A DNA stretch of 64,000 bases from an uncultured Pelolinea sp. (GCA_964493155.1 CAZBNE010000001.1:26065-90064); one strand, 5' to 3'; numbered from the stretch's first letter, positions 3,155 through 52,876 are shown. The notes: generated by a model not told the origin, from the sequence alone. Made by a program: numbers and translations.

Positions 3155-4738
3155 ATGGCTGTTACCCAAAAGAAAACTTTATTAGTGCTCATGCTTTTAG
3201 GGTTGCTTTATTTCGGCATTTTCATTTTCGCCAATCGGCTGGGTGCCAAAAATGTGGATATGATGGCTGTTTTTGAAGTTGACGAGTATGCCCAGTATCC
3301 ATATCTTGCTCCGATGCTCAGTGGTGGGGGTTCCATTAAACAAGTTGTACGCAATTTTATGGTTTATGGGCATTATTACTACGGTTATCCATTCTACTTT
3401 TTCTCTGGTTTGGTTCTGCTGCCGCTTCGTCTGATCCTGGGGCAAAGTTGGACTGCCAACACCCAATTGAGTATGCTTATCCTGAGACAGATGGTTAATG
3501 TGCTGCCCAACCTGCTCAGCGCCCTGGTATTGACCACCTTTGCCACCCAATTACGTTCCTTCTGGAAGAGTATAGCGATATTCTCCCTGTTATTGATTAC
3601 CCCCGCGCTTGTGAACAATGGATTCTGGTGGCATCCGGATGGGCTGGGGCTTTTATTCGTATCGCTTGTTTTTCTGTGTTTATTACTGGATAAAATGCAA
3701 TTCGGTCAGTTCTTCCTTTTGGCATCTGTTTGCGCAGGATTAGCCGCAGGAGTCAAGTACCTCGGGCTGTTTTTTTTCTTCACGATACCTGTCTATTTGA
3801 TCACGGGAGTCATAGAGAAAAAAATCTCTGTCAAGGCTGCTGCACTAAAGGGTGCTCTTTTTCTGGTGGTCATGCTGCTCGTAGTAGTCATATCCAATCC
3901 ACTTTTGCTGCTGCCGCTTGAGAGGTCTGAACTGATTGCAACACAGCTAAGGCAATTCTCGCGTACCAGCGCAGGTGAAATAATGGGTCGACAGTCGATT
4001 CTTGAAGGTACACAGCTGCCAGGTTGGTTGACGGAACAATATGGCAGCCTGCCCTTTCTGCTATTCGTCAGCGCTGCACTGATTTACGGCTTTTTCAAAC
4101 CCGAGAACAGGATGAAAGCATTATTGATCGCCTCTTACATCCTTCCGCTTTCAATGGTGATATTAAGCGGCGCGCTTCAGCGTCAGCATTACTGGTTGCC
4201 GGTCTTTCTGCCAATGGCAACTTCAATGACCTTCCTTATGCCTGAGTCAATCTCAAGCTTATTTATAAAACCAGTAAAGTGGGCGCAAATTCTGCTCCTG
4301 GGTTTATTAACTGTACAAGGCGTCATTTTTACCCATACCGATTTCAACCGTTTTGATCAAATGTTAAAACGCGAGCAGCAATCCGCGAGTCTGACTTTTT
4401 ATCAAGATGTCAAGGATCTATTCTTCAAGGATAACCAATCTGTCAGTGTGTACAGGGACTGGAAAGTTTATTTTCCTTCAGACGAACAGACTGGGGTTTT
4501 TATGGATTGGGATCTGGCCAGTTACGAATTGATCTCTCAAAGGCAGCCAGATTATCTTTTACTGGAGAAGGTGAATGTGCTCACCTATGGAAATGAGAAT
4601 TTTCTGGCGAGTTCTGCTGATCCTGAACGCCTGTCCCCGATGCACCTTTTTTACTCAGATGCATTAAAGGATAAGATCGAGGGATATCATTTGATTTTTT
4701 CAGACGATTTTGGATTGGTTTTCCAACGGATTGTGTAA
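3155..4738 (+). CDS. Large polytopic membrane protein, possible GT-C fold (PMT/ArnT-like) glycosyltransferase
   Basis: More than 10 predicted TM helices. A DE motif in the first loop (FEVDEYAQYPY), as in GT39/ArnT enzymes. C-terminal soluble domain. Family call is tentative. Confidence 0.45.
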   Translation: MAVTQKKTLLVLMLLGLLYFGIFIFANRLGAKNVDMMAVFEVDEYAQYPYLAPMLSGGGSIKQVVRNFMVYGHYYYGYPFYFFSGLVLLPLRLILGQSWTANTQLSMLILRQMVNVLPNLLSALVLTTFATQLRSFWKSIAIFSLLLITPALVNNGFWWHPDGLGLLFVSLVFLCLLLDKMQFGQFFLLASVCAGLAAGVKYLGLFFFFTIPVYLITGVIEKKISVKAAALKGALFLVVMLLVVVISNPLLLLPLERSELIATQLRQFSRTSAGEIMGRQSILEGTQLPGWLTEQYGSLPFLLFVSAALIYGFFKPENRMKALLIASYILPLSMVILSGALQRQHYWLPVFLPMATSMTFLMPESISSLFIKPVKWAQILLLGLLTVQGVIFTHTDFNRFDQMLKREQQSASLTFYQDVKDLFFKDNQSVSVYRDWKVYFPSDEQTGVFMDWDLASYELISQRQPDYLLLEKVNVLTYGNENFLASSADPERLSPMHLFYSDALKDKIEGYHLIFSDDFGLVFQRIV

Positions 4739-19161: not shown

Positions 19162-20013
19162 ATGAAAGAAATTGCGACGGATATTTTAATTGAAACTGAA
19201 TATGAAGGTGTGACTGTAGGCGCCATCCGAACGGCAGCGGGCGTGGTGATGGTGGATACGCCCATCAATCCCAAAGATGCCTCAGCGTGGCGCACCACCT
19301 GCACCCGCTCTTCCACCGGATCAGATCGGCTGCTGGTGCTCCTGGATGAGCATTTCGACCGCGTTTCAGGCGCAACCAACATCAAATGCCCGGTGATTGT
19401 GCATGAAAAAACCTCCCAGGCGGTTTCATCCAAACCATCCTTAAAGAACCAGCCGCCTGACGAAATGGGCGCGGCATGGGAGACAAATCCTGAACCAGCG
19501 GTTACCACGCGCTGGATCCATGCCGAGATCACCTTTACAGTAAATATGGCTATCAACTGGGGAGATGACCCCATCCTGTTGGAACATCACCCGGGCCCAT
19601 CCAAGGGCTCCACCTGGGTTGTTGTACCGCAAAAGCATGTGGCGTTCATCGGAGATACTGTAACACCCGGGCAGCCGCCATTCTTCGCCAACGCGGATAT
19701 TGACACCTGGCTGGAAAGCCTGCATGAATTGCAGCTGGCGCGCTTTAAGGATTTCATCCTCATTAGCGGGCGCGGATCTTTGGTTACGATCGACGATGTT
19801 AAGGACCTGGAACATTTTCTCAAAAAGGCTGCACGCAAGCTGGAAAAATTGCGGCCATCTAAAGCCAAAGCCGAAGAGATAGAAACATTGGCAGCAGAAT
19901 TAATGGAAGATTTCACCTCCAAAAACAAACGTGAGGCAGAACAATTCTTAAACCGCCTGTCTACCGGCATCACGCAGTATTACAGCAGCCACGCTTCAAA
20001 AAAATCAGACTGA
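19162..20013 (+). CDS. Metallo-beta-lactamase-fold protein (degenerate metal motif)
   Basis: The pattern VVMVDTP...LLVLLDEHFDRVSG resembles an MBL HxHxDH region but is partly substituted. Confidence 0.4.
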   Translation: MKEIATDILIETEYEGVTVGAIRTAAGVVMVDTPINPKDASAWRTTCTRSSTGSDRLLVLLDEHFDRVSGATNIKCPVIVHEKTSQAVSSKPSLKNQPPDEMGAAWETNPEPAVTTRWIHAEITFTVNMAINWGDDPILLEHHPGPSKGSTWVVVPQKHVAFIGDTVTPGQPPFFANADIDTWLESLHELQLARFKDFILISGRGSLVTIDDVKDLEHFLKKAARKLEKLRPSKAKAEEIETLAAELMEDFTSKNKREAEQFLNRLSTGITQYYSSHASKKSD

Positions 20014-23468: not shown

Positions 23469-23676
23469 TTGGAAAATATGGATATTTTTTACCCGGCAAA
23501 AATCGTGCTGAATAAAGAAATAATTCATCGATCTATATCGATTTTTTTATCCTTGTTCATCCACGGTTAATCATTTTTTCCCTATTGACAAATTTTAAAA
23601 AAGTCTTAAACTTATGGTATAGTGGTATGACCAACATACCACCCAAATGATCGTTATTGATGCAAAAGGAGAAAAA

Positions 23677-24432
23677 ATGAAAACAAAAATCTTTGCTCTG
23701 TTGATCGCAGGAGCACTTTTTCTTTCAGCTTGCGGCGGATTGCCGAGCCTGGGGATTGGCAGCGCTGCAAAAAATGCTGAGGAAATGGAGCTTCAGGAGA
23801 TCAAGCCCAGGCCAACCGAAGCTGTACTTACAGATGCCGCCTTTTTCCGCGATGAGCTTGATAAAGATATCAACAATGATTGGGGCTTGAAAGTCATTTC
23901 AGGCCTTGAAGAACAATTGGTCAGCTCGCAGGTCAATGGCAAGTTTCGCATGCAAACTTTGCCGCCCAATGATGTCAACTATGTTTTCCTGAACAAAAAG
24001 CATGCGTATAAAGATGTTATCGTGCAGGCGCAGGTTGAAAACTCCGGCCAGCTTGACAATGCTTTCTCGCTTATCTGCCGCGCCACAGAAGCTGGCTGGT
24101 ATGAATTCCGCATCAGCAGCAGCGGATACTATGAACTTCTGCGTTTTGACCAGTACAAGAAGAACGAAGGCCGTAACGCATATACAAGTTTCATTGAAAA
24201 ACGTGTCGGCAGTTCTCTGATTAAAAGCGGGCTGGACAAGAACGTGTTCTCCCTGTCCTGCGTTGGTGATGTCATTACTGTCTTTATTAATGGCGAACAG
24301 CCCTACTGGGAAAAACGCCCGCTTGCCGTACAAGATAATTCATTCAGCGAAGGTACCATCGGCTTTGGCTTTGCAGGTTATGGCCAGACATTGGATGCTG
24401 CGTTCGATTGGGTGGAAGCGGTAAAACCTTAA
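23677..24432 (+). CDS. Secreted lipoprotein with ConA/LamG-like (DUF1080-like) domain
   Basis: Lipobox LSAC. The pattern NAFSLICRATEAGWYEFRISSSGYYELLRF...GTIGFGF...FDWVE is shared with the 45643-46335 paralog. AAGGAG RBS before ATG 23677. Confidence 0.55.
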   Translation: MKTKIFALLIAGALFLSACGGLPSLGIGSAAKNAEEMELQEIKPRPTEAVLTDAAFFRDELDKDINNDWGLKVISGLEEQLVSSQVNGKFRMQTLPPNDVNYVFLNKKHAYKDVIVQAQVENSGQLDNAFSLICRATEAGWYEFRISSSGYYELLRFDQYKKNEGRNAYTSFIEKRVGSSLIKSGLDKNVFSLSCVGDVITVFINGEQPYWEKRPLAVQDNSFSEGTIGFGFAGYGQTLDAAFDWVEAVKP

Positions 24433-24454
24433 GCAAGTCCTTTGAATGCGAAAA

Positions 24455-24486
24455 AAGGAAGGTCGCCCTCGCCTTCCTTTTTTTCA
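24455..24486 (+). terminator. Intrinsic terminator
   Basis: Stem AAGGAAGG / CCTTCCTT followed by a T run. Confidence 0.75.
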
Positions 24487-24493
24487 TTTAACC

Positions 24494-24521
24494 TTGCGAT
24501 GAAAAATGTTTCCGATATAAT
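24494..24521 (+). promoter_or_regulatory. Candidate promoter of the NurA / HAS-barrel / HerA operon
   Basis: TTGCGA (24494-24499), 16 nt spacer, TATAAT (24516-24521). Confidence 0.5.
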
Positions 24522-24556
24522 CACCATCATGGCCGAGTCAGAATGGGGATCCCCGT

Positions 24557-25705
24557 ATGCCGCTTAACTATCTTCAGCTACAACCGCAGATCGAACAATA
24601 CGGCCAGCGCGCTGTCATGAACAGTCAGGATCTCGACGCCAAATTGAAGATCGCTCTTGAATTATTGCATATGTGCGGCCGGCAGCATACCGGTATCCGT
24701 TCTACGCTCAATGAAAAAATTACAGGAAGCCGGCAAGGCGACCGCACTGCACTGCTTTCATATGAACCTGCAGATTCTGCGGTAGATATCCCGGTAACAG
24801 ATTCAAATTATATTTTACTGACGTCTGATGGCTCACAGATCATCCCCGATCCGCATGATGCCCTGCCGGTTGCGCTGATCAACACCAGCCGGTTGTGTTA
24901 TGAACCTGGCAGCGGGCGGGCCCCGCAAGTGGAGGTTTTCACACGCTTCCTTACAGATGCCAGTGGTCAGATCGAACTGGATCAGGTCAGCGAAGACCTG
25001 GTCTCATTGAAACGCGATGTTGAGGAATTGCGTGTCCTGGCGGAATGGCAGAATGACTCCGGTCATCAGGTCATCGCGCTCGGTGACGGACCTCTGGAGC
25101 TTTTCCATCAACCGCGCAGTGCGGCGGATTTTGCCAATGCCTTTGATATGTATCAATCAGCGTTACGTGATTTGCGGAGTAATAAAGCAATCATAGCCGG
25201 ATATACCGACCGGCAGCGCTCGCCTCTGGTGATCAAAATGCTTGAATCTTTGGATGAAAAATTTCATCTGGATGGACTGGATGACCTGGTTTTGTTTAGC
25301 GCAGTGCTTGAACCCGGTCAACGCTCGGCGATTTTTGAGCTGTGGTCCACTTCGAGCCAGAAGTACACGGGCGATCTGGCACTACATTTTTTTTATCTGA
25401 ATGTTGGCAGCAAGAAATTCCCGTGGCTTGCTCGTGTTGAAATTCCCGCCTGGGTGGCTGCTGATGCGGATCGGGTCAGCCTGCTCCAGAACGCTCTGCT
25501 TGAGCAGTGCCGCCTGATGGGTACCCGCCCCTACCCTTACCTGCTGCACCGGGCGCATGAAGAAGCGGTGGTGCATTTTGATGAAAAAGAACAGTTGATC
25601 GCCCGCCTGGCGCTCGAGCTTCAGCGCCATGGGCTGGGGATTAGCACTCAATCCAACAAACTAAGCGCCAAAGAACTGCAATCAAGGACAAGGATGGCAA
25701 AATGA
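24557..25705 (+). CDS. NurA-domain nuclease-like protein
   Basis: NurA-like motif order: LLTSDGSQI, ALGDGPLE, AGYTDRQRS, YLLHRAHEEAVV. Confidence 0.65.
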   Translation: MPLNYLQLQPQIEQYGQRAVMNSQDLDAKLKIALELLHMCGRQHTGIRSTLNEKITGSRQGDRTALLSYEPADSAVDIPVTDSNYILLTSDGSQIIPDPHDALPVALINTSRLCYEPGSGRAPQVEVFTRFLTDASGQIELDQVSEDLVSLKRDVEELRVLAEWQNDSGHQVIALGDGPLELFHQPRSAADFANAFDMYQSALRDLRSNKAIIAGYTDRQRSPLVIKMLESLDEKFHLDGLDDLVLFSAVLEPGQRSAIFELWSTSSQKYTGDLALHFFYLNVGSKKFPWLARVEIPAWVAADADRVSLLQNALLEQCRLMGTRPYPYLLHRAHEEAVVHFDEKEQLIARLALELQRHGLGISTQSNKLSAKELQSRTRMAK

Positions 25706-26319
25706 GCGAAATTCATATCGGGCGCCTGCTGCGCGCCAATACCCGCGGATGTGTGGCTGGTTGCCAGATCAATCAGCCTTTTCCGGCTTTCGGTTCAATG
25801 GTCAGCATCCCGCTGGATAACGGCCTAAAAGCGTATGGTTTGGTGACCGATATCCATATTGACGATGACGGGCTGGTACGCCAGCTGGCCGCTTCAGACA
25901 GTCTGCCCGAAGAAGTCATTCAGGATAACCGCCTGAACCGCAATGTTCCTGTGGAATTGAGCGTGCTTTTCATCGGTTCTTCTGACAATGGCAGGGTTTC
26001 GCACCTGCTGCCGCCCCGTCCGCCATTATCTCTTGACCGTATGTTCACCTGCCCGGATGAAGAGATCCGTGCTTTCACATCCTCCGGACGCTTCAGTTAT
26101 CTGCGCCACATCCTGGGTGCGCTGGACCTGCCCGCACCTGATCTGCTGGCCGCGCACCTGATGCAGGCGGGCAAGGCGCATGCCGCCGAAGCCAATGCGG
26201 TCTGGGCTAAGGAAGCCATCCAGGAGATCATCACTCTGCTGCGTGATAATCACGCGGCGCTCACGGCGGTGCTGGGCGCAATCGCCGATGCCTATCCGGG
26301 TTTTGCGGTAGAAGATTAA
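25702..26319 (+). CDS. Uncharacterized protein with HAS-barrel-like N-terminal region
   Basis: ATGA start/stop overlap with the upstream gene. The N-terminus IHIGRLL...FGSMVSIPLDNGLKAYGLVTDIHI parallels the N-terminus of the downstream ATPase (VGYVVS...EGSFIVIESGDWQFYGIAIDLQL). Confidence 0.5.
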   Translation: MSEIHIGRLLRANTRGCVAGCQINQPFPAFGSMVSIPLDNGLKAYGLVTDIHIDDDGLVRQLAASDSLPEEVIQDNRLNRNVPVELSVLFIGSSDNGRVSHLLPPRPPLSLDRMFTCPDEEIRAFTSSGRFSYLRHILGALDLPAPDLLAAHLMQAGKAHAAEANAVWAKEAIQEIITLLRDNHAALTAVLGAIADAYPGFAVED

Positions 26320-26330
26320 GGGAGTCAGCC

Positions 26331-28076
26331 ATGGCAGAATTAAAAACATCCTCTGAAAATCCCCCCCAATCGGTAGGTTACGTGGTCAGCGGGGGATTAA
26401 AAGAAAACCTGAACGTGCGCCTCACCGTACCGGCGCATGAGGTTCAGGAAGGTTCGTTTATTGTCATTGAAAGCGGTGATTGGCAGTTCTACGGCATCGC
26501 CATCGATCTGCAGCTGGGCGCCACCGACCCGCGCTTTGCCGACGAACAAAGCGAAACTCGTCTGCCGCCAGCCCTGGCAGCGCTGCTGCACGGGCAGACC
26601 TTGTTCACAAATCTGGTAGTAATGCCCGCGCTGATGCTTGAACGCGGCCCTGATCCCGAAGGTGCAGATTATGCCAAGGCTTATCCTGTTTGGCGTGCGC
26701 CTATTGACGCAGGCGACAAAGAAGAGCCGCGCCCCATGCCAGTCAAAACCCTGCCCGCTCACCACGCGCAGGCGCGCCTGGCCGCTTCCGGGGATATCGC
26801 CGAGATCTTTGGCGACCCCGGGCAACCGGGAAATTTTACCGTTGGCACTACCCGCGAGCAGAATCATCCGGTCTGCCTAAACCTGGAAAAATTCGTGCAG
26901 CGCTCTTCAGGCATTTTCGGCGCTACCGGCACCGGCAAATCTTTCCTGACGCGTATTTTACTGACAGGCCTGATCGACCACGACAAAGCCTCGGTTCTTG
27001 TATATGACATGCACAATGAATACGGGCTGGACGACACCGCCTCAGACACAGGCAAGAATGTGATCGGACTGCGTACCGCTTTCGGACGCGCCAAAGTTCA
27101 GATCGTCGGTCTCGGTGCTGATACAAAGATTCGTGAAACCGTACCGGATTTCAACCTGGTTCTGGATTACAGCGACATCACCACTGCTGATATCGAACTG
27201 CTGACGCGCGAGCTGAACCTGAAAGAAACCACCCCGACCACACTGGATGCCCTGGTGACCTCCTTTGGGCAGGATGGCTGGTTCAAGGAATTTAAGGAGA
27301 TGAAAACTGATGCCTGGGTTGAGGACGCCGATGGCAAGAAAGTGCCGGCGCCAGGCAGCGTTGCCCACTGGGCGAACAGCAATGGAGTTAATGTTATGGC
27401 AGCCGAAGGGCTGCACAGCAAGCTTAAACGCGTTTTCAATCTGGATTACATCATTGAAAACCCTCCTTCTGACAGCATCCGTGACATCATCGAGGCCTTG
27501 AAGAAGGGCAAGCATATCGTACTCTCCTTCGGCAGGCACGAGACAGACCTCGACTATTTGCTGGTTTCCAATTTGCTCACACGCCGCATCCGCGACGAAT
27601 GGGAAAAGCTGACCAATGCCTTCCGCAGCCAGAGCGCCCCCGAACCGCGCCCTCTGGTGATCGCCGTGGAAGAAGCCCACAAGCTACTCAATCGTGAGAT
27701 GGCGGCGCAGACTACCTTCAGCACCATCGCCCGCGAAATGCGCAAGTATTATGTCACGCTGCTGGTCATTGACCAACGCCCGTCGCAGATCTATGACGAG
27801 GTTATGTCGCAGCTTGGAACGCGCGTGTGCGGCTGGCTGGGGGATGACGATGATGTCAGCGCGGCACTCTCAGGCCTGGCTTCACGCGATGCGCTGCGCG
27901 GCATGCTGGCGCGCCTGCAGCCCAAAGAAGAGGTGCTGCTGCTGGGCTGGGGTGTTCCCATGCCCATCCTGGTGCGCTCCAGGCGCTATGATCAGCAGTT
28001 CTGGAATGAGATCAAAAGCGCAAATAAAGGTGATTTTAATCGGGATAAAACGATCAGCACGATGTGGCCGGGCTGA
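26331..28076 (+). CDS. HerA/FtsK-superfamily ATPase (DUF87/HerA-like) with N-terminal HAS barrel
   Basis: Walker A GATGTGKSF, Walker B-like LVIAVEEAHKLL, LLVIDQRPSQI. AAGGGAG RBS. Confidence 0.75.
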   Translation: MAELKTSSENPPQSVGYVVSGGLKENLNVRLTVPAHEVQEGSFIVIESGDWQFYGIAIDLQLGATDPRFADEQSETRLPPALAALLHGQTLFTNLVVMPALMLERGPDPEGADYAKAYPVWRAPIDAGDKEEPRPMPVKTLPAHHAQARLAASGDIAEIFGDPGQPGNFTVGTTREQNHPVCLNLEKFVQRSSGIFGATGTGKSFLTRILLTGLIDHDKASVLVYDMHNEYGLDDTASDTGKNVIGLRTAFGRAKVQIVGLGADTKIRETVPDFNLVLDYSDITTADIELLTRELNLKETTPTTLDALVTSFGQDGWFKEFKEMKTDAWVEDADGKKVPAPGSVAHWANSNGVNVMAAEGLHSKLKRVFNLDYIIENPPSDSIRDIIEALKKGKHIVLSFGRHETDLDYLLVSNLLTRRIRDEWEKLTNAFRSQSAPEPRPLVIAVEEAHKLLNREMAAQTTFSTIAREMRKYYVTLLVIDQRPSQIYDEVMSQLGTRVCGWLGDDDDVSAALSGLASRDALRGMLARLQPKEEVLLLGWGVPMPILVRSRRYDQQFWNEIKSANKGDFNRDKTISTMWPG

Positions 28077-28524
28077 TTGGAAGCAGCCAGAAGAGCACAA
28101 CGCTGATGACGATACCCAGAATGACACCGGTGATGACCTCAAAAGGCGTGTGGCCGAGTACTTCTTTTAATTCTTTTTCGGGAATGCCGGTGCCTTCAAA
28201 AAGAGATTTCATCATTTCATTAATGCGTTCAGCATGGATGCCCGCCTGTCGTCGCACACCGGCGGCATCATAAATAACGACCATGCTGATGGCAAATGAC
28301 AGCGCGAAAAGGGGTGAACCAAAACCTTCCTGTAGTCCGATCGCCAGGGTTACTGAAGTAACCAGCGCCGAATGAGAACTGGGCATGCCGCCGGGGCTGA
28401 AAATGATGCCCCAATTCCATCTCTTATTAAAAAAATAATCCAGCGGCGCCTTAAGGAACTGCCCGATGCCCCAGGACAGGATGGCAGCTATAAGCACATT
28501 GTTATGAATGAGGCTGCACAGCAT
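28054..28524 (-). CDS. Divergent PAP2 family (DUF212) membrane protein
   Basis: GGMPSSHSALVTS motif, 4 TM helices. ATG 28524 preferred over TTG 28542. Confidence 0.7.
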   Translation of the reverse strand: MLCSLIHNNVLIAAILSWGIGQFLKAPLDYFFNKRWNWGIIFSPGGMPSSHSALVTSVTLAIGLQEGFGSPLFALSFAISMVVIYDAAGVRRQAGIHAERINEMMKSLFEGTGIPEKELKEVLGHTPFEVITGVILGIVISVVLFWLLPISPATSC

Positions 28525-28525
28525 A

Positions 28526-28762
28526 TCAGTTCTTTTCCTCAAGCTCAGTCTCTTCCCCTTCAGCAGTCAACTGGCGCACCTTAAGCTCCGCTTTTTCCAG
28601 CAGTTCCTGACAGTGTGCGATCAGTGCCTTGCCGCGCTCGAACATGGCCATGGTGCCTTGCAGATCTCTGGATTCACCTTCCAAAGCAGAAAGCAGGATT
28701 TCAAGTTCCTCTAATGCCTGTTCATAGCTCATGTCCTGTACGGACGCAGATGTTTTTGCCAT
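28526..28762 (-). CDS. xseB: Exodeoxyribonuclease VII small subunit
   Basis: The SYEQALEELEILLSALE... helical hairpin is typical of XseB. GAGGGA RBS before ATG 28762. Confidence 0.85.
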   Translation of the reverse strand: MAKTSASVQDMSYEQALEELEILLSALEGESRDLQGTMAMFERGKALIAHCQELLEKAELKVRQLTAEGEETELEEKN

Positions 28763-47981: not shown

Positions 47982-50039
47982 TCAAAATACACGAACGCGA
48001 TTGCGTCCGGTCTCTTTGGCTGAATAAAGCGCAGCGTCGGCTGCTGCCAGTAATTTTTCAAAACTACCTCGGGGTTTTTCCATCTCCGCCACCCCGATGC
48101 TCACTGAAACCGATACATCCCCTTTTTCACTTTTAAGGCGCAAAGAGGAAATAGCCGTGCACATCCTTTCTGCCGCGTGCGCGGCAGCAACCACTTCAGT
48201 TTCAGGTAACAGCACAACAAATTCCTCACCGCCATAACGGCACATTACATCCACCTTGCGCAGGATGGCGAGGCAGATATCGGCGATCTCTTTCAGAATC
48301 TGATCGCCAACCTGGTGGTCGAAGGTATCATTGATCTTTTTAAAATGGTCAATATCCATCATTATGATGGACAAATGCTTTTTGTAGCGCTTGGAGCGTT
48401 CTATCTCATTTTCTGCGTAAGCGAAGAAATACCGCCTGTTATAAAGTCCGGTCAAACTGTCTGTTATTGCCAATTTTTCCATTTCTTCAAATAGTTCCGC
48501 GTTTTCAATTGCGATCGCCGCCTGGTCAGCCAATGCTTGCAGTCTGCCAAGATATTTGGTTTCAAAGAAATCGGGTTTGGCTGAATCGAGATCAATGAAT
48601 CCCAACAATTTTTCCTTACGTTTGATCGGCGCGCCGATATAAGAGCGTATCCACTCCAATCCTGGAACGTCTTTTATCCATTCAGGATCCGCCCAGGTAT
48701 CCGCAATGTGGATGGGCTTTCCGCTGTCTGCCATTTTTTTAAAATTCGGCAGGTCCTCATAATTTTGCTCTATCGATTGGATCAGCTCGCGCCTCGTAAA
48801 TTCTTCATATCCCTTCATTTTTACGAATCGGGCTATATCTTGCTCATCGACGAGGGCGATATCTGCTGCATCATGCGGAACTACCTTGTCAATATTATCC
48901 AGTATTCTTTCCAGCACTTCATCCAGATCTAGGGAACTGTTAATAATAGATGCAGTGTCTGCCAATGCTTCAGCAAACTGGCGTTGTTCCTTTTCTTTGA
49001 TCTCACTGATCTTGCGCCTGGTAATATTCCGGAGTGAAATGATCTGACCTGTGTTGGTTTGATCCCCACCAGGAATACTATCAATTTTGACATCCAGAAA
49101 GCGAGGCGGATCGCCGGAAATATCCAGTTCAACATTAATATTTTGTTTATCCCTTAAGGGTTCTATCAGTTCAGAATAATCCTTAAACATATCCCAGATC
49201 GACATCCCAATTGGTGAAGGGCCTTCATACCCCGAAAGTTCGATTGCGGATGGGTTGATATCAACTACCCTGTCATTTCTATCCAGTACTATTAGACCAT
49301 CCGGCATGTTGTCAACCAAAGTATTACGGGCGATCGGGATCAGGTCAAACAATTGATTCCGAAATATCATCCATACCACAACCAGTGCACTGAAAGTAAA
49401 AGCCAGTGTGGTAATATCCAGTCCTTTCACCGGGCTTAACCCAAGAACATAAATGATGTTCGCAATCCATGAAACAGCCATTGAAATGAAGATGATGATC
49501 ACCTGGTTTCTTTTTTTTGGGGTTGATTTCATCAAATATCTGATCAGCCAATATGTACCCGCCATCAGTACCAGGTAACTGAAACCGATGTGCACTGGAA
49601 ACCACAGGCCATGGTCATATATCGCAACATGATTGACAGAATTTGCAGGTATGAGTATTTCTTCCCACAACAGACCATGATATTCGCTTGTAAAAGCCAG
49701 GATCAGAGTGATGGATGGAATTATCCAGATAAGGTATCGCGGAAAATTTTCCAAAAATTTTTTCTGGTCAGTGTATTCGGCTGTGAACATAAACCAAAGT
49801 GGAGAAATAGTTACAGCACCCAGATACTGAATTTTCGACCATGAAAGCTTACCGGCAACACTAAGAGCTCCTGCCTCAAAAATTGAAGCAAAACTCCAGA
49901 TAGCCAGAGCGAACATCATAAGGGCAAACTGCTGGTGCCCAGGATTTGCTTTGCGTTCCAGCACTGCCGCTGCGGAAAGGAGCGACAGGATGCCCGCGAT
50001 CGCGTAAGCAAATGAAAAGGGTGGAAATGAAAACAGCAT
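47982..50039 (-). CDS. Sensor diguanylate cyclase: N-terminal 7TM, PAS, GAF, GGDEF (GGEEF)
   Basis: 7 TM helices, PAS and GAF-like regions, SLTGLYNRR, I-site RKVD plus RYGGEEF. Confidence 0.85.
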   Translation of the reverse strand: MLFSFPPFSFAYAIAGILSLLSAAAVLERKANPGHQQFALMMFALAIWSFASIFEAGALSVAGKLSWSKIQYLGAVTISPLWFMFTAEYTDQKKFLENFPRYLIWIIPSITLILAFTSEYHGLLWEEILIPANSVNHVAIYDHGLWFPVHIGFSYLVLMAGTYWLIRYLMKSTPKKRNQVIIIFISMAVSWIANIIYVLGLSPVKGLDITTLAFTFSALVVVWMIFRNQLFDLIPIARNTLVDNMPDGLIVLDRNDRVVDINPSAIELSGYEGPSPIGMSIWDMFKDYSELIEPLRDKQNINVELDISGDPPRFLDVKIDSIPGGDQTNTGQIISLRNITRRKISEIKEKEQRQFAEALADTASIINSSLDLDEVLERILDNIDKVVPHDAADIALVDEQDIARFVKMKGYEEFTRRELIQSIEQNYEDLPNFKKMADSGKPIHIADTWADPEWIKDVPGLEWIRSYIGAPIKRKEKLLGFIDLDSAKPDFFETKYLGRLQALADQAAIAIENAELFEEMEKLAITDSLTGLYNRRYFFAYAENEIERSKRYKKHLSIIMMDIDHFKKINDTFDHQVGDQILKEIADICLAILRKVDVMCRYGGEEFVVLLPETEVVAAAHAAERMCTAISSLRLKSEKGDVSVSVSIGVAEMEKPRGSFEKLLAAADAALYSAKETGRNRVRVF

Positions 50040-51268: not shown

Positions 51269-52876
51269 TTATTCAGCCAGGCAGGTACGATCACGGCCTG
51301 TCGCTTTTGCCTGATAAAGTGCTTCATCAGCAGCTATTAAAAGCGCATCGCTGTTCATGCCATTCTCTGGAAATGTGGCAATTCCCATAGAAACAGAAAT
51401 ATTGACGCTATTCTCGCCGATCAGCAGCGCCATTGTTTTGACCGCGTTACGCCACAATTCTGCCCGATGAAAGGCGGATTCTTTAGTCATTTCAGGCATA
51501 ACCAAAACGAATTCATCCCCGCCGTATCGGCTGACACAATCACTCCCGCGAGTCTCTGATTGAAGCAGCTTGCTTAAAGCAATGATGACATCATCACCGC
51601 CCTTGTGGCCGTAGGTATCATTTATTTTTTTGAAAAAATCAATATCGAGCATAATAATGCTCAATGGATAATTATTACGCAGCGCGCGTGAAATTTCCCG
51701 CGAGAGTGTTTCTTTTAGGAAGCGCCGGTTATATATACCTGTAACCGGATCGCGCATCGCTTGTTCGTGCAGTTGATCCTGCAATTCCCTGATTTCTCCC
51801 AGCTGTTGCTTAAGCCGTTTGTTTACAGCGCGAAGATCCTTTTCAGCCCGCTTGCGAGTGCTGATATCATCCAGGATCACCACCCAACCCAGAAACCTTT
51901 TTCTCTGGTCTCTCAAAGGGGTTATATGAACATCCAGGTATGCTTTGTGTGGTGCCCGAGTCGAAATCTCAATTCTTTTTGTTTCCGTCTTATCAAAATA
52001 ATTTTTAACCTTCTTCCAAAATCCTTCCAGGGTTTGGATCTGGGCACCCACATTTTTGTTGTGGCCGATCGAAAGCATTTTTGCAGCAACCGGGTTGAAG
52101 TTGATTATCCGCATGCGTTCATCAATGGTCAAGATACCATTTTTTACATTCTCATAGATCAATTCATAGGCAATCGGGACAATATCCAGGAAGCCGCTTT
52201 TGAACATCCCCCATGCCAAAACTAATCCAGTGAACAGAAAGCCGATCGAAACCGTGTCAAGACCTGGAAATGGATTAAGGTTCAGGACATAGATCAGAAA
52301 ACCAATCCACGGGATGATCGAAGCAATCAAAATGATTCGACTTTGTTCGCGATAAACTTTTTGTGAGCATACGGGGGATAAAAGCAGAACCGCAGTCCCA
52401 ACAGATACCATGACAAAAACATAAGCCACAGAAATCCAAAAAGCTGGACCGTGATGATAAATAAGGCTGTTGCTACCAGGCGGACCCGGTGTAAATGCAT
52501 CCCAGATCAAGCCATGCATCTCATTGGTCGCTGCCAAGAGAATCGTGATCAATGGGATTAAAAAAAATAACACTAAGGTGATGTGTGTTACCCGTTTTCC
52601 CCGACTGCCGAATTGCAGAGCAAAAAGAACAAGCAATACTGGTGAAGTCTGTGCGCCAAGATAGACCATCTTTGACCAGAATATTTTTAAATCCAAAGGT
52701 ACTGCTGCGGCTTCCAATCCGTTGCATAAGGCCCACTCGGAAACAGCCATAAATAAAAGAAAAAGCGGCCAGCCTCCGCGTGAGTTGCGCCGCTTCCATA
52801 TTATGATGGATACAGCGATTGCTACCAATCCGGTCAGCAACTGCGCGATGGAATATGCAGTCAATTCATAGAGCAT
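51269..52876 (-). CDS. Sensor diguanylate cyclase: N-terminal 7TM, PAS, GGDEF
   Basis: 7TM domain paralogous to that of 47982-50039. PVTGIYNRR, I-site RGSD plus RYGGDEF. Confidence 0.85.
   Translation of the reverse strand: MLYELTAYSIAQLLTGLVAIAVSIIIWKRRNSRGGWPLFLLFMAVSEWALCNGLEAAAVPLDLKIFWSKMVYLGAQTSPVLLVLFALQFGSRGKRVTHITLVLFFLIPLITILLAATNEMHGLIWDAFTPGPPGSNSLIYHHGPAFWISVAYVFVMVSVGTAVLLLSPVCSQKVYREQSRIILIASIIPWIGFLIYVLNLNPFPGLDTVSIGFLFTGLVLAWGMFKSGFLDIVPIAYELIYENVKNGILTIDERMRIINFNPVAAKMLSIGHNKNVGAQIQTLEGFWKKVKNYFDKTETKRIEISTRAPHKAYLDVHITPLRDQRKRFLGWVVILDDISTRKRAEKDLRAVNKRLKQQLGEIRELQDQLHEQAMRDPVTGIYNRRFLKETLSREISRALRNNYPLSIIMLDIDFFKKINDTYGHKGGDDVIIALSKLLQSETRGSDCVSRYGGDEFVLVMPEMTKESAFHRAELWRNAVKTMALLIGENSVNISVSMGIATFPENGMNSDALLIAADEALYQAKATGRDRTCLAE

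Follow-up and report, generated by a model that had tools for sequence, protein, structure and literature searches.

What is a third gene doing between those of the nuclease NurA and the ring ATPase HerA, and does the machine that the three encode serve the chromosome or destroy foreign DNA? These questions are raised by a stretch of 64,000 nucleotides (nt) from an uncultured Pelolinea sp. (GCA_964493155.1, CAZBNE010000001.1:26065-90064), hereafter the window, where three coupled plus-strand genes in the list of open reading frames (ORFs), nurA, a middle gene and herA, span 24557-28076 (Table 1). An earlier note, made from the sequence alone, had read the trio as an uncharacterised three-component variant, composed of a NurA-like nuclease, a HAS-barrel-only protein and a HerA-type ATPase, and had left undecided whether it acts in defence or in DNA processing. 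The three-component description stands: the domains hold, the trio is syntenic in other genomes and the middle protein has no name in curated families. As to function, defence keeps some weight, while synteny, constraint and immobility favour housekeeping DNA processing. We think it rather probable that the operon encodes a chromosomal, vertically inherited NurA-HerA DNA-end-processing machine of the Anaerolineae with a lineage-specific third subunit at the interface where NurA docks on the HAS-barrels. The two enzymes are known and already partly annotated; what is new is the three-subunit architecture, which is a variant of the known NurA-HerA system.

In the archaeal and Deinococcus complexes, a HerA hexamer drives double-stranded DNA along its central channel and feeds it to a NurA dimer, which sits on the crown formed by the six HerA N-terminal HAS-barrels. 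NurA is a toroidal dimer with Mn2+-dependent 5'-3' exonuclease and endonuclease activity that is stimulated by HerA. Docking on the HAS-barrel crown occurs at a 6:2 HerA:NurA stoichiometry (PMC9960219), and Sulfolobus HerA from which the HAS domain has been removed no longer binds NurA and still oligomerises (PMC3326311). In the Deinococcus complex every NurA protomer touches four HAS domains across an interface of ionic character, of which the HerA face is negative (PMC9960219).

By profile and predicted fold, gene 1 is a NurA nuclease. Its product matches the Pfam NurA family (PF09376) end to end (profile positions 7-254 of 254; 73.8 bits with a cutoff of 21, E = 2e-20), the same domain is present in all 120 of the gene-1 homologues listed, and NCBI names the Pelolinea and Anaerolineaceae orthologues 'DNA double-strand break repair nuclease NurA'. 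The AlphaFold2 (AF2) model, with a predicted local distance difference test score (pLDDT) of 89.3, finds Sulfolobus NurA as its best Foldseek match in the Protein Data Bank (PDB; 2ygk, E = 7.9e-11, template modelling [TM] score 0.51/0.59), after which come Argonaute PIWI, EndoV and RNase H. The NurA-type motifs that the earlier note had picked out are present as DGSQ (residues 91-94), GDGPLE (176-181) and HRAHEE (331-336), and D91, E157, D177, E181, H334 and E335 vary little or not at all across 54-70 aligned orthologues and are kept in at least 95% of a set of 70. A NurA profile run against PDB sequences returned spurious homeodomain matches and no NurA; it was the fold search that gave NurA instead.

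The gene 3 product carries the DUF87 ATPase domain of HerA (PF01935, 98.7 bits with a cutoff of 23.2, E = 6.6e-28), its Walker A and Walker B sequences, also described in that note, are both present and conserved, and among 59 orthologues 200 of its 581 positions reach 95% identity or more. The HAS-barrel-like N-terminus proposed for it is weak in the window protein (PF09378, E = 0.049, residues 15-74) but holds in the orthologues, 19 of 21 of whose N-termini match the family (best 4.7e-8). The best match among PDB sequences is Sulfolobus HerA (4d2i, 7e-17), and Deinococcus HerA was not found among them at E <= 1e-3. The protein also matches the PADLOC HerA models, the best of which is defence-associated (PDLC04105, 5e-29). 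The NCBIfam equivalog models for archaeal double-strand break repair HerA or anti-phage HerA give 66 bits for NF040937 (cutoff 800), 66 for NF040819 (cutoff 970), 60 for NF042943 (cutoff 800) and 53 for NF042944 (cutoff 850), and the window protein reaches no cutoff. By these comparisons it is a distinct HerA subfamily. The nurA and herA genes are both intact, and strong constraint acts on them.

The character of these two enzymes bears on one other account of the operon, namely that it encodes a DNA pump of the HerA/FtsK type, with which these filamentous bacteria would segregate their chromosomes, transfer DNA or clear it from the septum; NurA and the middle protein would then be accessories, and the system would be something other than a repair nuclease. 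HerA does belong to the pumping ATPases of the FtsK-HerA superfamily, it matches CedD, VirB4, TraB and EccC weakly, it is the most conserved of the three proteins, and a possible role of archaeal HerA in cell division has been raised (PMC12977600). The best matches, however, are to HerA proper, far above the conjugation and secretion ATPases, the conserved catalytic-type residues of NurA suggest that nuclease activity is selected, and no membrane-anchoring or secretion genes are linked to the trio in the window flanks, which leaves such a pump very improbable.

The middle protein is the new element. Its AF2 model, built from an alignment of two subfamilies (pLDDT 87.2, predicted TM score 0.82), shows a six- to seven-stranded barrel at residues 3-116 followed by a helical domain at residues 119-197, the helices of which (119-126, 134-138, 145-161, 167-179 and 184-197) are predicted with high pLDDT. 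When this model was compared with the PDB by Foldseek, the top 50 matches were all HerA (given per HerA chain), the best being 4d2i (E = 1.7e-6, 23% identity over 125 columns). They come from archaeal repair, Deinococcus, Sir2-HerA, DUF4297-HerA and TdpAB complexes, with the DUF4297-HerA chains fitting at a root-mean-square deviation of about 3 Å. The HAS-barrel family PF09378 is the sole Pfam family that recurs among 42 diverse relatives, with sub-threshold matches in 13 of them, the best at 24.8 bits with a cutoff of 25.2. The barrel-like character without an ATPase domain that had been claimed for the protein thus agrees with both searches. The window protein itself has no match in Pfam, NCBIfam or PADLOC, the single sequence and the 42-member profile gave noise only when run against PDB sequences, and no relatives of the C-terminal helical domain were detectable in Pfam, NCBIfam, PADLOC or PDB sequences. 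Homology to HerA is visible only at the level of predicted fold and Pfam profile.

Domains of the same type form the N-terminal beta-barrel crown of the F1-ATPase alpha and beta subunits and of HerA, where the six-membered crown stabilises the ring and binds partners (PMC3326311). Those barrels are fused to their ATPases, whereas the middle protein forms a polypeptide by itself and carries a C-terminal helical domain of its own. It is not a recent duplicate of the barrel of the neighbouring HerA, because it resembles that barrel only remotely: hhalign of the middle-protein family with the cognate HerA N-termini gave a local match of 22 columns at 15% identity (hhalign probability 39%), and forcing longer or global alignments lowered the score. 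Fold and profile instead argue for a stand-alone HAS-barrel that is old and has diverged, joined to a C-terminal helical domain peculiar to it. Motifs that are invariant in the family are DDDGLVRQL (residues 54-62), NR-NRNVP-E (76-85) and LPPRPPLSLD (103-112). The isoelectric point (pI) of the protein is 5.2 (barrel 5.45, C-terminal domain 4.96) and that of the HerA N-terminus is 4.6, such that both are acidic.

The earlier note had also called the middle protein an orphan, and this was wrong. There are 5,528 homologues at E <= 1e-3 in a collection clustered at 90% identity, and an exhaustive search among 50%-identity representatives gave 367 clusters, nearly all of about 200 residues. A scan of one genome per species placed relatives in at least 545 genomes, of which the best 80 are all Anaerolineae (Pelolinea, Leptolinea, Bellilinea, Longilinea and Anaerolinea); all named carriers are Chloroflexota/Anaerolineae, and the closest relative among the matches listed is from Pelolinea (85%). 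A literature search turned up neither a description of NurA-HerA with a stand-alone HAS-barrel partner nor a paper on NurA-HerA in Chloroflexi.

The trio is kept together across these hundreds of genomes. Of 82 Anaerolineae loci, all have nurA directly 5' of the middle gene and 73 have herA 3' of it. The nurA/middle-gene junction overlaps in 38 of 76 cases, mostly by 4 nt, while 20 of 66 middle gene/herA junctions carry an insertion of more than 150 nt. A subgroup that is 35-41% identical retains the gene order: of its 80 metagenomic loci, 71 have nurA 5' of the middle gene, and most of those that lack it upstream are contig ends, loci L110 and L112 being true exceptions. The nurA/middle-gene junction stays intact where the other is interrupted, and in Bellilinea-like genomes without herA nearby the two genes are still adjacent (L021, L025, L030, L033 and L045); from these insertions and absences it follows that nurA and the middle gene are the tightest unit of the trio. 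The middle gene is translationally coupled to nurA, and the trio is under strong purifying selection. Identity across genera is 62-89% for HerA, 48-85% for the middle protein and 34-74% for NurA. Mirror-tree correlations among the three proteins are 0.80-0.85 and are dominated by shared phylogeny; the partial correlation of the middle protein is 0.53 with NurA versus 0.29 with HerA, which is weak evidence. Nine over-long representatives include four that combine NurA and the middle protein, and these look like frameshifted or read-through products with garbled frames and were not counted as fusions.

The middle gene/herA junction is also a recurrent site of insertions of 0.4-4 kb (L010, L018, L024, L029, L040, L044, L049, L053 and L059). 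The inserts include small genes of the GxxExxY/four-helix-bundle type, a Metallophos-like ORF of about 269 residues in L044 and L049, and a pair of genes encoding 226 and 600 residues in L040.

Bacterial chromosomal nurA-herA operons that are not linked to Mre11-Rad50 are known from Deinococcus radiodurans (DR_0836/DR_0837; PDB 7wrw/7wrx) and Thermus thermophilus, and the Pelolinea operon resembles them in combining a hexameric HerA translocase with an N-terminal HAS-barrel and an RNase H-like NurA (PMC9960219). It differs from the two-gene Deinococcus operon (PMC9960219) in the third gene, which sits between the other two in all 82 loci, and in a HerA that is nearer to the archaeal enzyme (4d2i, 7e-17).

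This pattern also bears on whether the middle protein is a subunit at all. It might be a separate OB/S1-like nucleic-acid binder, for example one that shields the 3' single-stranded DNA tail, or a passenger of the operon. Small beta-barrels commonly bind nucleic acid, the Joint Genome Institute (JGI) names one homologue 'RNA-binding protein with RPS1 domain', and there are rare loci without nurA upstream (L110 and L112) or without herA nearby. Against binding, the acidic pI of the whole protein and of both of its parts is atypical for a DNA or RNA binder and its structural neighbours are exclusively HerA N-terminal regions, with no OB or S1 proteins among them; a passenger is hard to reconcile with a near-invariant and often overlapping linkage to nurA across two subfamilies that are only 35-41% identical. 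We therefore regard both versions as quite improbable.

The middle protein is instead probably a new regulatory or adaptor subunit of the DNA-end-processing machine, as judged from its modelled fold and by analogy with known complexes. Because the HAS-barrel is the module on which NurA docks, it would most likely act at the NurA/HerA interface, by binding the HerA-facing surface of NurA or by stacking on the HerA crown. It might join nuclease and motor in the manner of an adaptor or collar, or keep hold of NurA, as a safety catch or decoy, for as long as HerA is not loaded on DNA, and in either case it would tune when and how NurA cuts. A bolder proposal, by analogy, is that the free HAS-barrel is a built-in switch, which by mimicking the HerA crown on the docking face of NurA, or by forming an extra collar between NurA and HerA, would decide between shredding of both strands and resection of the 5' strand only. 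We consider this fairly unlikely. If true, it would parallel the chi/RecBCD switch in protein form and would be the regulator, so far missing, that HerA-NurA is said to need for making recombinogenic 3' tails (PMC12977600).

The physiological role of the machine is most likely recombinational repair or DNA-end processing rather than dedicated phage defence, and this is favoured because the synteny is of a housekeeping kind, the family is broadly spread and conserved, mobile elements gave no match to the middle protein, and there is occasional linkage to Mre11 or RecA. In the window the 5' neighbours of the trio are, in order, genes for asparaginase II, an endonuclease III-like glycosylase, a DUF3048 protein and a lipoprotein, and the 3' neighbours are DUF212, xseB, xseA, HIT, methyltransferase, ferritin and gatB, a context of housekeeping and DNA repair (endonuclease III-like, exonuclease VII). 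The DUF212-xseB-xseA order is syntenic with the trio in 26 of 82 loci. No defence genes are present in the window flanks. The middle protein had no match in plasmids, phages, IMG/VR or the viral structure predictions of BFVD.

The same two enzymes are found in the archaeal Mre11-Rad50-HerA-NurA operons (Sulfolobus, Pyrococcus and Thermococcus), and the best matches of both (2ygk and 4d2i) are archaeal. Unlike those operons, the order here is nurA-X-herA, X being an extra predicted HAS-barrel subunit that they do not have, and the window has no mre11 or rad50. The absence of an Mre11/Rad50/SbcCD-like gene nearby, as noted at the outset, was borne out: none is among the genes within about 8 kb on either side of the trio, the 64-kb window has no ORF of 700 residues or more, and tblastn of an SbcD-like protein gave no match in it. 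Elsewhere the archaeal arrangement is approached. In three lineages of the distant subgroup, an Mre11/SbcD-like gene of the Metallophos family, encoding about 411-430 residues with canonical phosphoesterase motifs, lies 3' of herA (L085:9284-10519, on the same contig as L087; L088:10122-11414; and L162:5715-6974). The L085 copy overlaps herA, with RecA and RecX about 1.5 kb beyond it. No Rad50/SbcC was seen beside any of the three. A 415-residue protein 3' of herA in L083 was tested as a divergent Mre11 and is unrelated.

Several observations weigh against the operon being a three-subunit DNA-end-processing machine. The HAS-barrel assignment comes from a predicted structure and sub-threshold profile matches: the window protein has no match to PF09378, and, since the alignment covers no more than the barrel, the TM-scores of its model to HerA stay modest (0.34-0.42 of the query). 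The five Bellilinea-like genomes named above have no herA in the 6 kb downstream. There is also dispute about what NurA-HerA does in bacteria: nurA/herA deletion phenotypes are mild in Deinococcus and Thermus (PMC9960219), and the case made in a 2026 study is that HerA-NurA of archaea cuts up both strands and that its role may be antiviral (PMC12977600). Lastly, two divergent loci have a different setting. At L168:6823-10227 a divergent NurA (weak match), the middle gene and a HerA of 533 residues lie in a toxin-antitoxin-rich island, and at L167:3971-6315 the middle gene lies in a mobile-element-like block with no recognisable NurA upstream.

The last of these points also speak for the trio as an anti-phage or anti-foreign-DNA module, in which HerA would load onto linear invader DNA and pass it to NurA to be destroyed, and the middle protein would sense or regulate. 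Such a module would parallel the Sir2-HerA and DUF4297-HerA systems, which have the same architecture. In Sir2-HerA/Nezha, DUF4297-HerA and TdpAB the HAS-barrel face of the HerA hexamer is the docking platform for the effector, HerA structures from these systems are among the fold matches of the middle protein, and the PADLOC HerA models, with the defence-associated one as the best, and more weakly the NCBIfam anti-phage models match the window HerA. An antiviral HerA-NurA has been proposed from a T. kodakarensis study (PMC12977600). The partner in the operon, however, is NurA and not Sir2, DUF4297 or TdpB, there is an extra barrel-only protein, neither NurA nor the middle protein has a PADLOC match, and the anti-phage NCBIfam cutoff is not approached (60 versus 800 bits). 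The DUF212-xseB-xseA, HIT, ferritin and gatB synteny is conserved across genera and inheritance looks vertical, and a strongly conserved system in at least 545 species-level genomes is unlike the patchy spread that is typical of defence systems. When a defence-island context was looked for, both the window locus and its orthologues showed housekeeping synteny instead, L167 and L168 being the exceptions, the window flanks have no defence genes, plasmids, phages and viral contigs gave no match to the middle protein, and in some lineages an Mre11/SbcD-like gene and RecA-RecX are linked with the three genes. On this evidence a dedicated defence role is unlikely, and DNA-end processing on the chromosome is the role that we favour.

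The neighbours of the L168 trio are PhdYeFM, Gp49/HigB with HI1420/HigA, MazE and a methyltransferase fragment, a variable-island-like context unlike that of the window. L167 is on a 61-kb Logan contig (SRR8925804), where the middle-protein homologue (34% identical) overlaps the start of a HerA of 572 residues. The one-strand block around it contains many small genes of no assigned function, a LexA-like repressor, MoxR with a VWA protein, a UvrD helicase and a DnaG primase, and it looks like a mobile element or a prophage-like replication module.

Csm6 is the CARF-HEPN ribonuclease of type III CRISPR signalling. In Pyrobaculum it is encoded in nurA-csm6-herA clusters beside CRISPR arrays, which provide a precedent for a third gene between nurA and herA (PMC12977600). 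The middle gene there is csm6, whereas the model of the protein in the Pelolinea operon has the HAS-barrel fold, and there are no CRISPR-associated genes in the immediate flanks of the trio.

The layout of the operon is as the earlier note had described, except in one respect. The nurA and middle genes share an ATGA overlap at 25702-25705 with AAGGA just 5' of it, and an 11-nt gap that contains GGGAG (26320-26330) separates the middle gene from herA. On the 5' side, the terminator reported there is a strong hairpin with a U-run (folding free energy -22 kcal/mol, z-score -5.2, none of 200 shuffles equally stable), and it ends the upstream lipoprotein gene and sets the 5' boundary of the operon. 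The exception is the promoter: the sequence TTGCGA-16-TATAAT is present, and such sites are not enriched over chance (4 found across the region versus 3.1 +/- 1.9 expected in shuffled sequence), such that it is plausible as the nurA promoter by position only. On the 3' side, the convergent gene is a DUF212 gene that shares 23 nt with herA (28054-28076), and no terminator-like site was found between the two 3' ends.

Table 1. Features of the operon and of other parts of the window (nt positions in the window; aa, amino acids)
Feature	Position	Strand	Description
nurA	24557-25705	+	382 aa; RNase H-like NurA nuclease; NurA domain aa 91-339
Middle gene	25702-26319	+	205 aa
Middle gene, N-terminal part	25702-26052 (aa 1-117)	+	Predicted stand-alone HAS-barrel, helical insert aa 57-78
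Middle gene, C-terminal part and stop codon	26053-26319 (aa 118-205)	+	Predicted acidic helical domain
herA	26331-28076	+	581 aa; HerA/FtsK-superfamily ATPase
herA, own HAS-barrel	26373-26660 (about aa 15-110)	+	Pfam PF09378, from orthologues
herA, DUF87 ATPase core	26841-27590 (aa 171-420)	+	Pfam
herA, Walker A GATGTGKS	26919-26942 (aa 197-204)	+	Conserved in 59 orthologues
herA, Walker B VEEAH	27666-27680 (aa 446-450)	+	Conserved in 59 orthologues
Intrinsic-terminator-like hairpin	24442-24491 (approx.)	+	Flanking A-run and U-run; RNA fold
Sigma-70-like promoter candidate TTGCGA-16-TATAAT	24494-24521	+	10/12 consensus matches; 35 nt 5' of nurA start
DUF212 (divergent PAP2) gene	28054-28542	-	Pfam PF02681, 8.5e-49; operon 3' boundary, outside the system
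Lipoprotein gene	23647-24432	+	261 aa, predicted; lipobox LSAC; no Pfam match
Diguanylate cyclase gene	47982-50039	-	HisKA_7TM, GGDEF
Diguanylate cyclase gene	51269-52876	-	HisKA_7TM, GGDEF
ORF	3155-4738	+	527 aa; no Pfam match at E <= 1e-5
ORF	19162-20013	+	283 aa; no Pfam match at E <= 1e-5

The gene of the predicted lipoprotein lies directly 5' of the operon, separated from nurA by the terminator hairpin, and is co-syntenic with the operon in 12 of 82 loci. Elsewhere in the window are two ORFs without a Pfam match and two paralogous diguanylate cyclases about 1.2 kb apart, each with an N-terminal HisKA_7TM sensor and a GGDEF domain, the longer of which also carries PAS and GAF domains.

The finding matters for how NurA-HerA is controlled. 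Both strands tend to be degraded by the two-protein complex in vitro, and it has been proposed that a regulator exists (PMC12977600); bacterial NurA-HerA knock-outs have mild or paradoxical phenotypes, and it is debated whether the system acts in repair or in the destruction of foreign DNA (PMC9960219, PMC12977600). The middle protein defines a large family (more than 5,500 sequences, about 367 clusters at 50% identity) that has no curated-family match or functional name, and a separately encoded HAS-barrel bears on how ring ATPases recruit their partners, including those of Sir2-HerA and DUF4297-HerA. For the Anaerolineae, a conserved third subunit that appears to be built from the domain on which NurA docks would provide a testable handle on how the interface between motor and nuclease is regulated.

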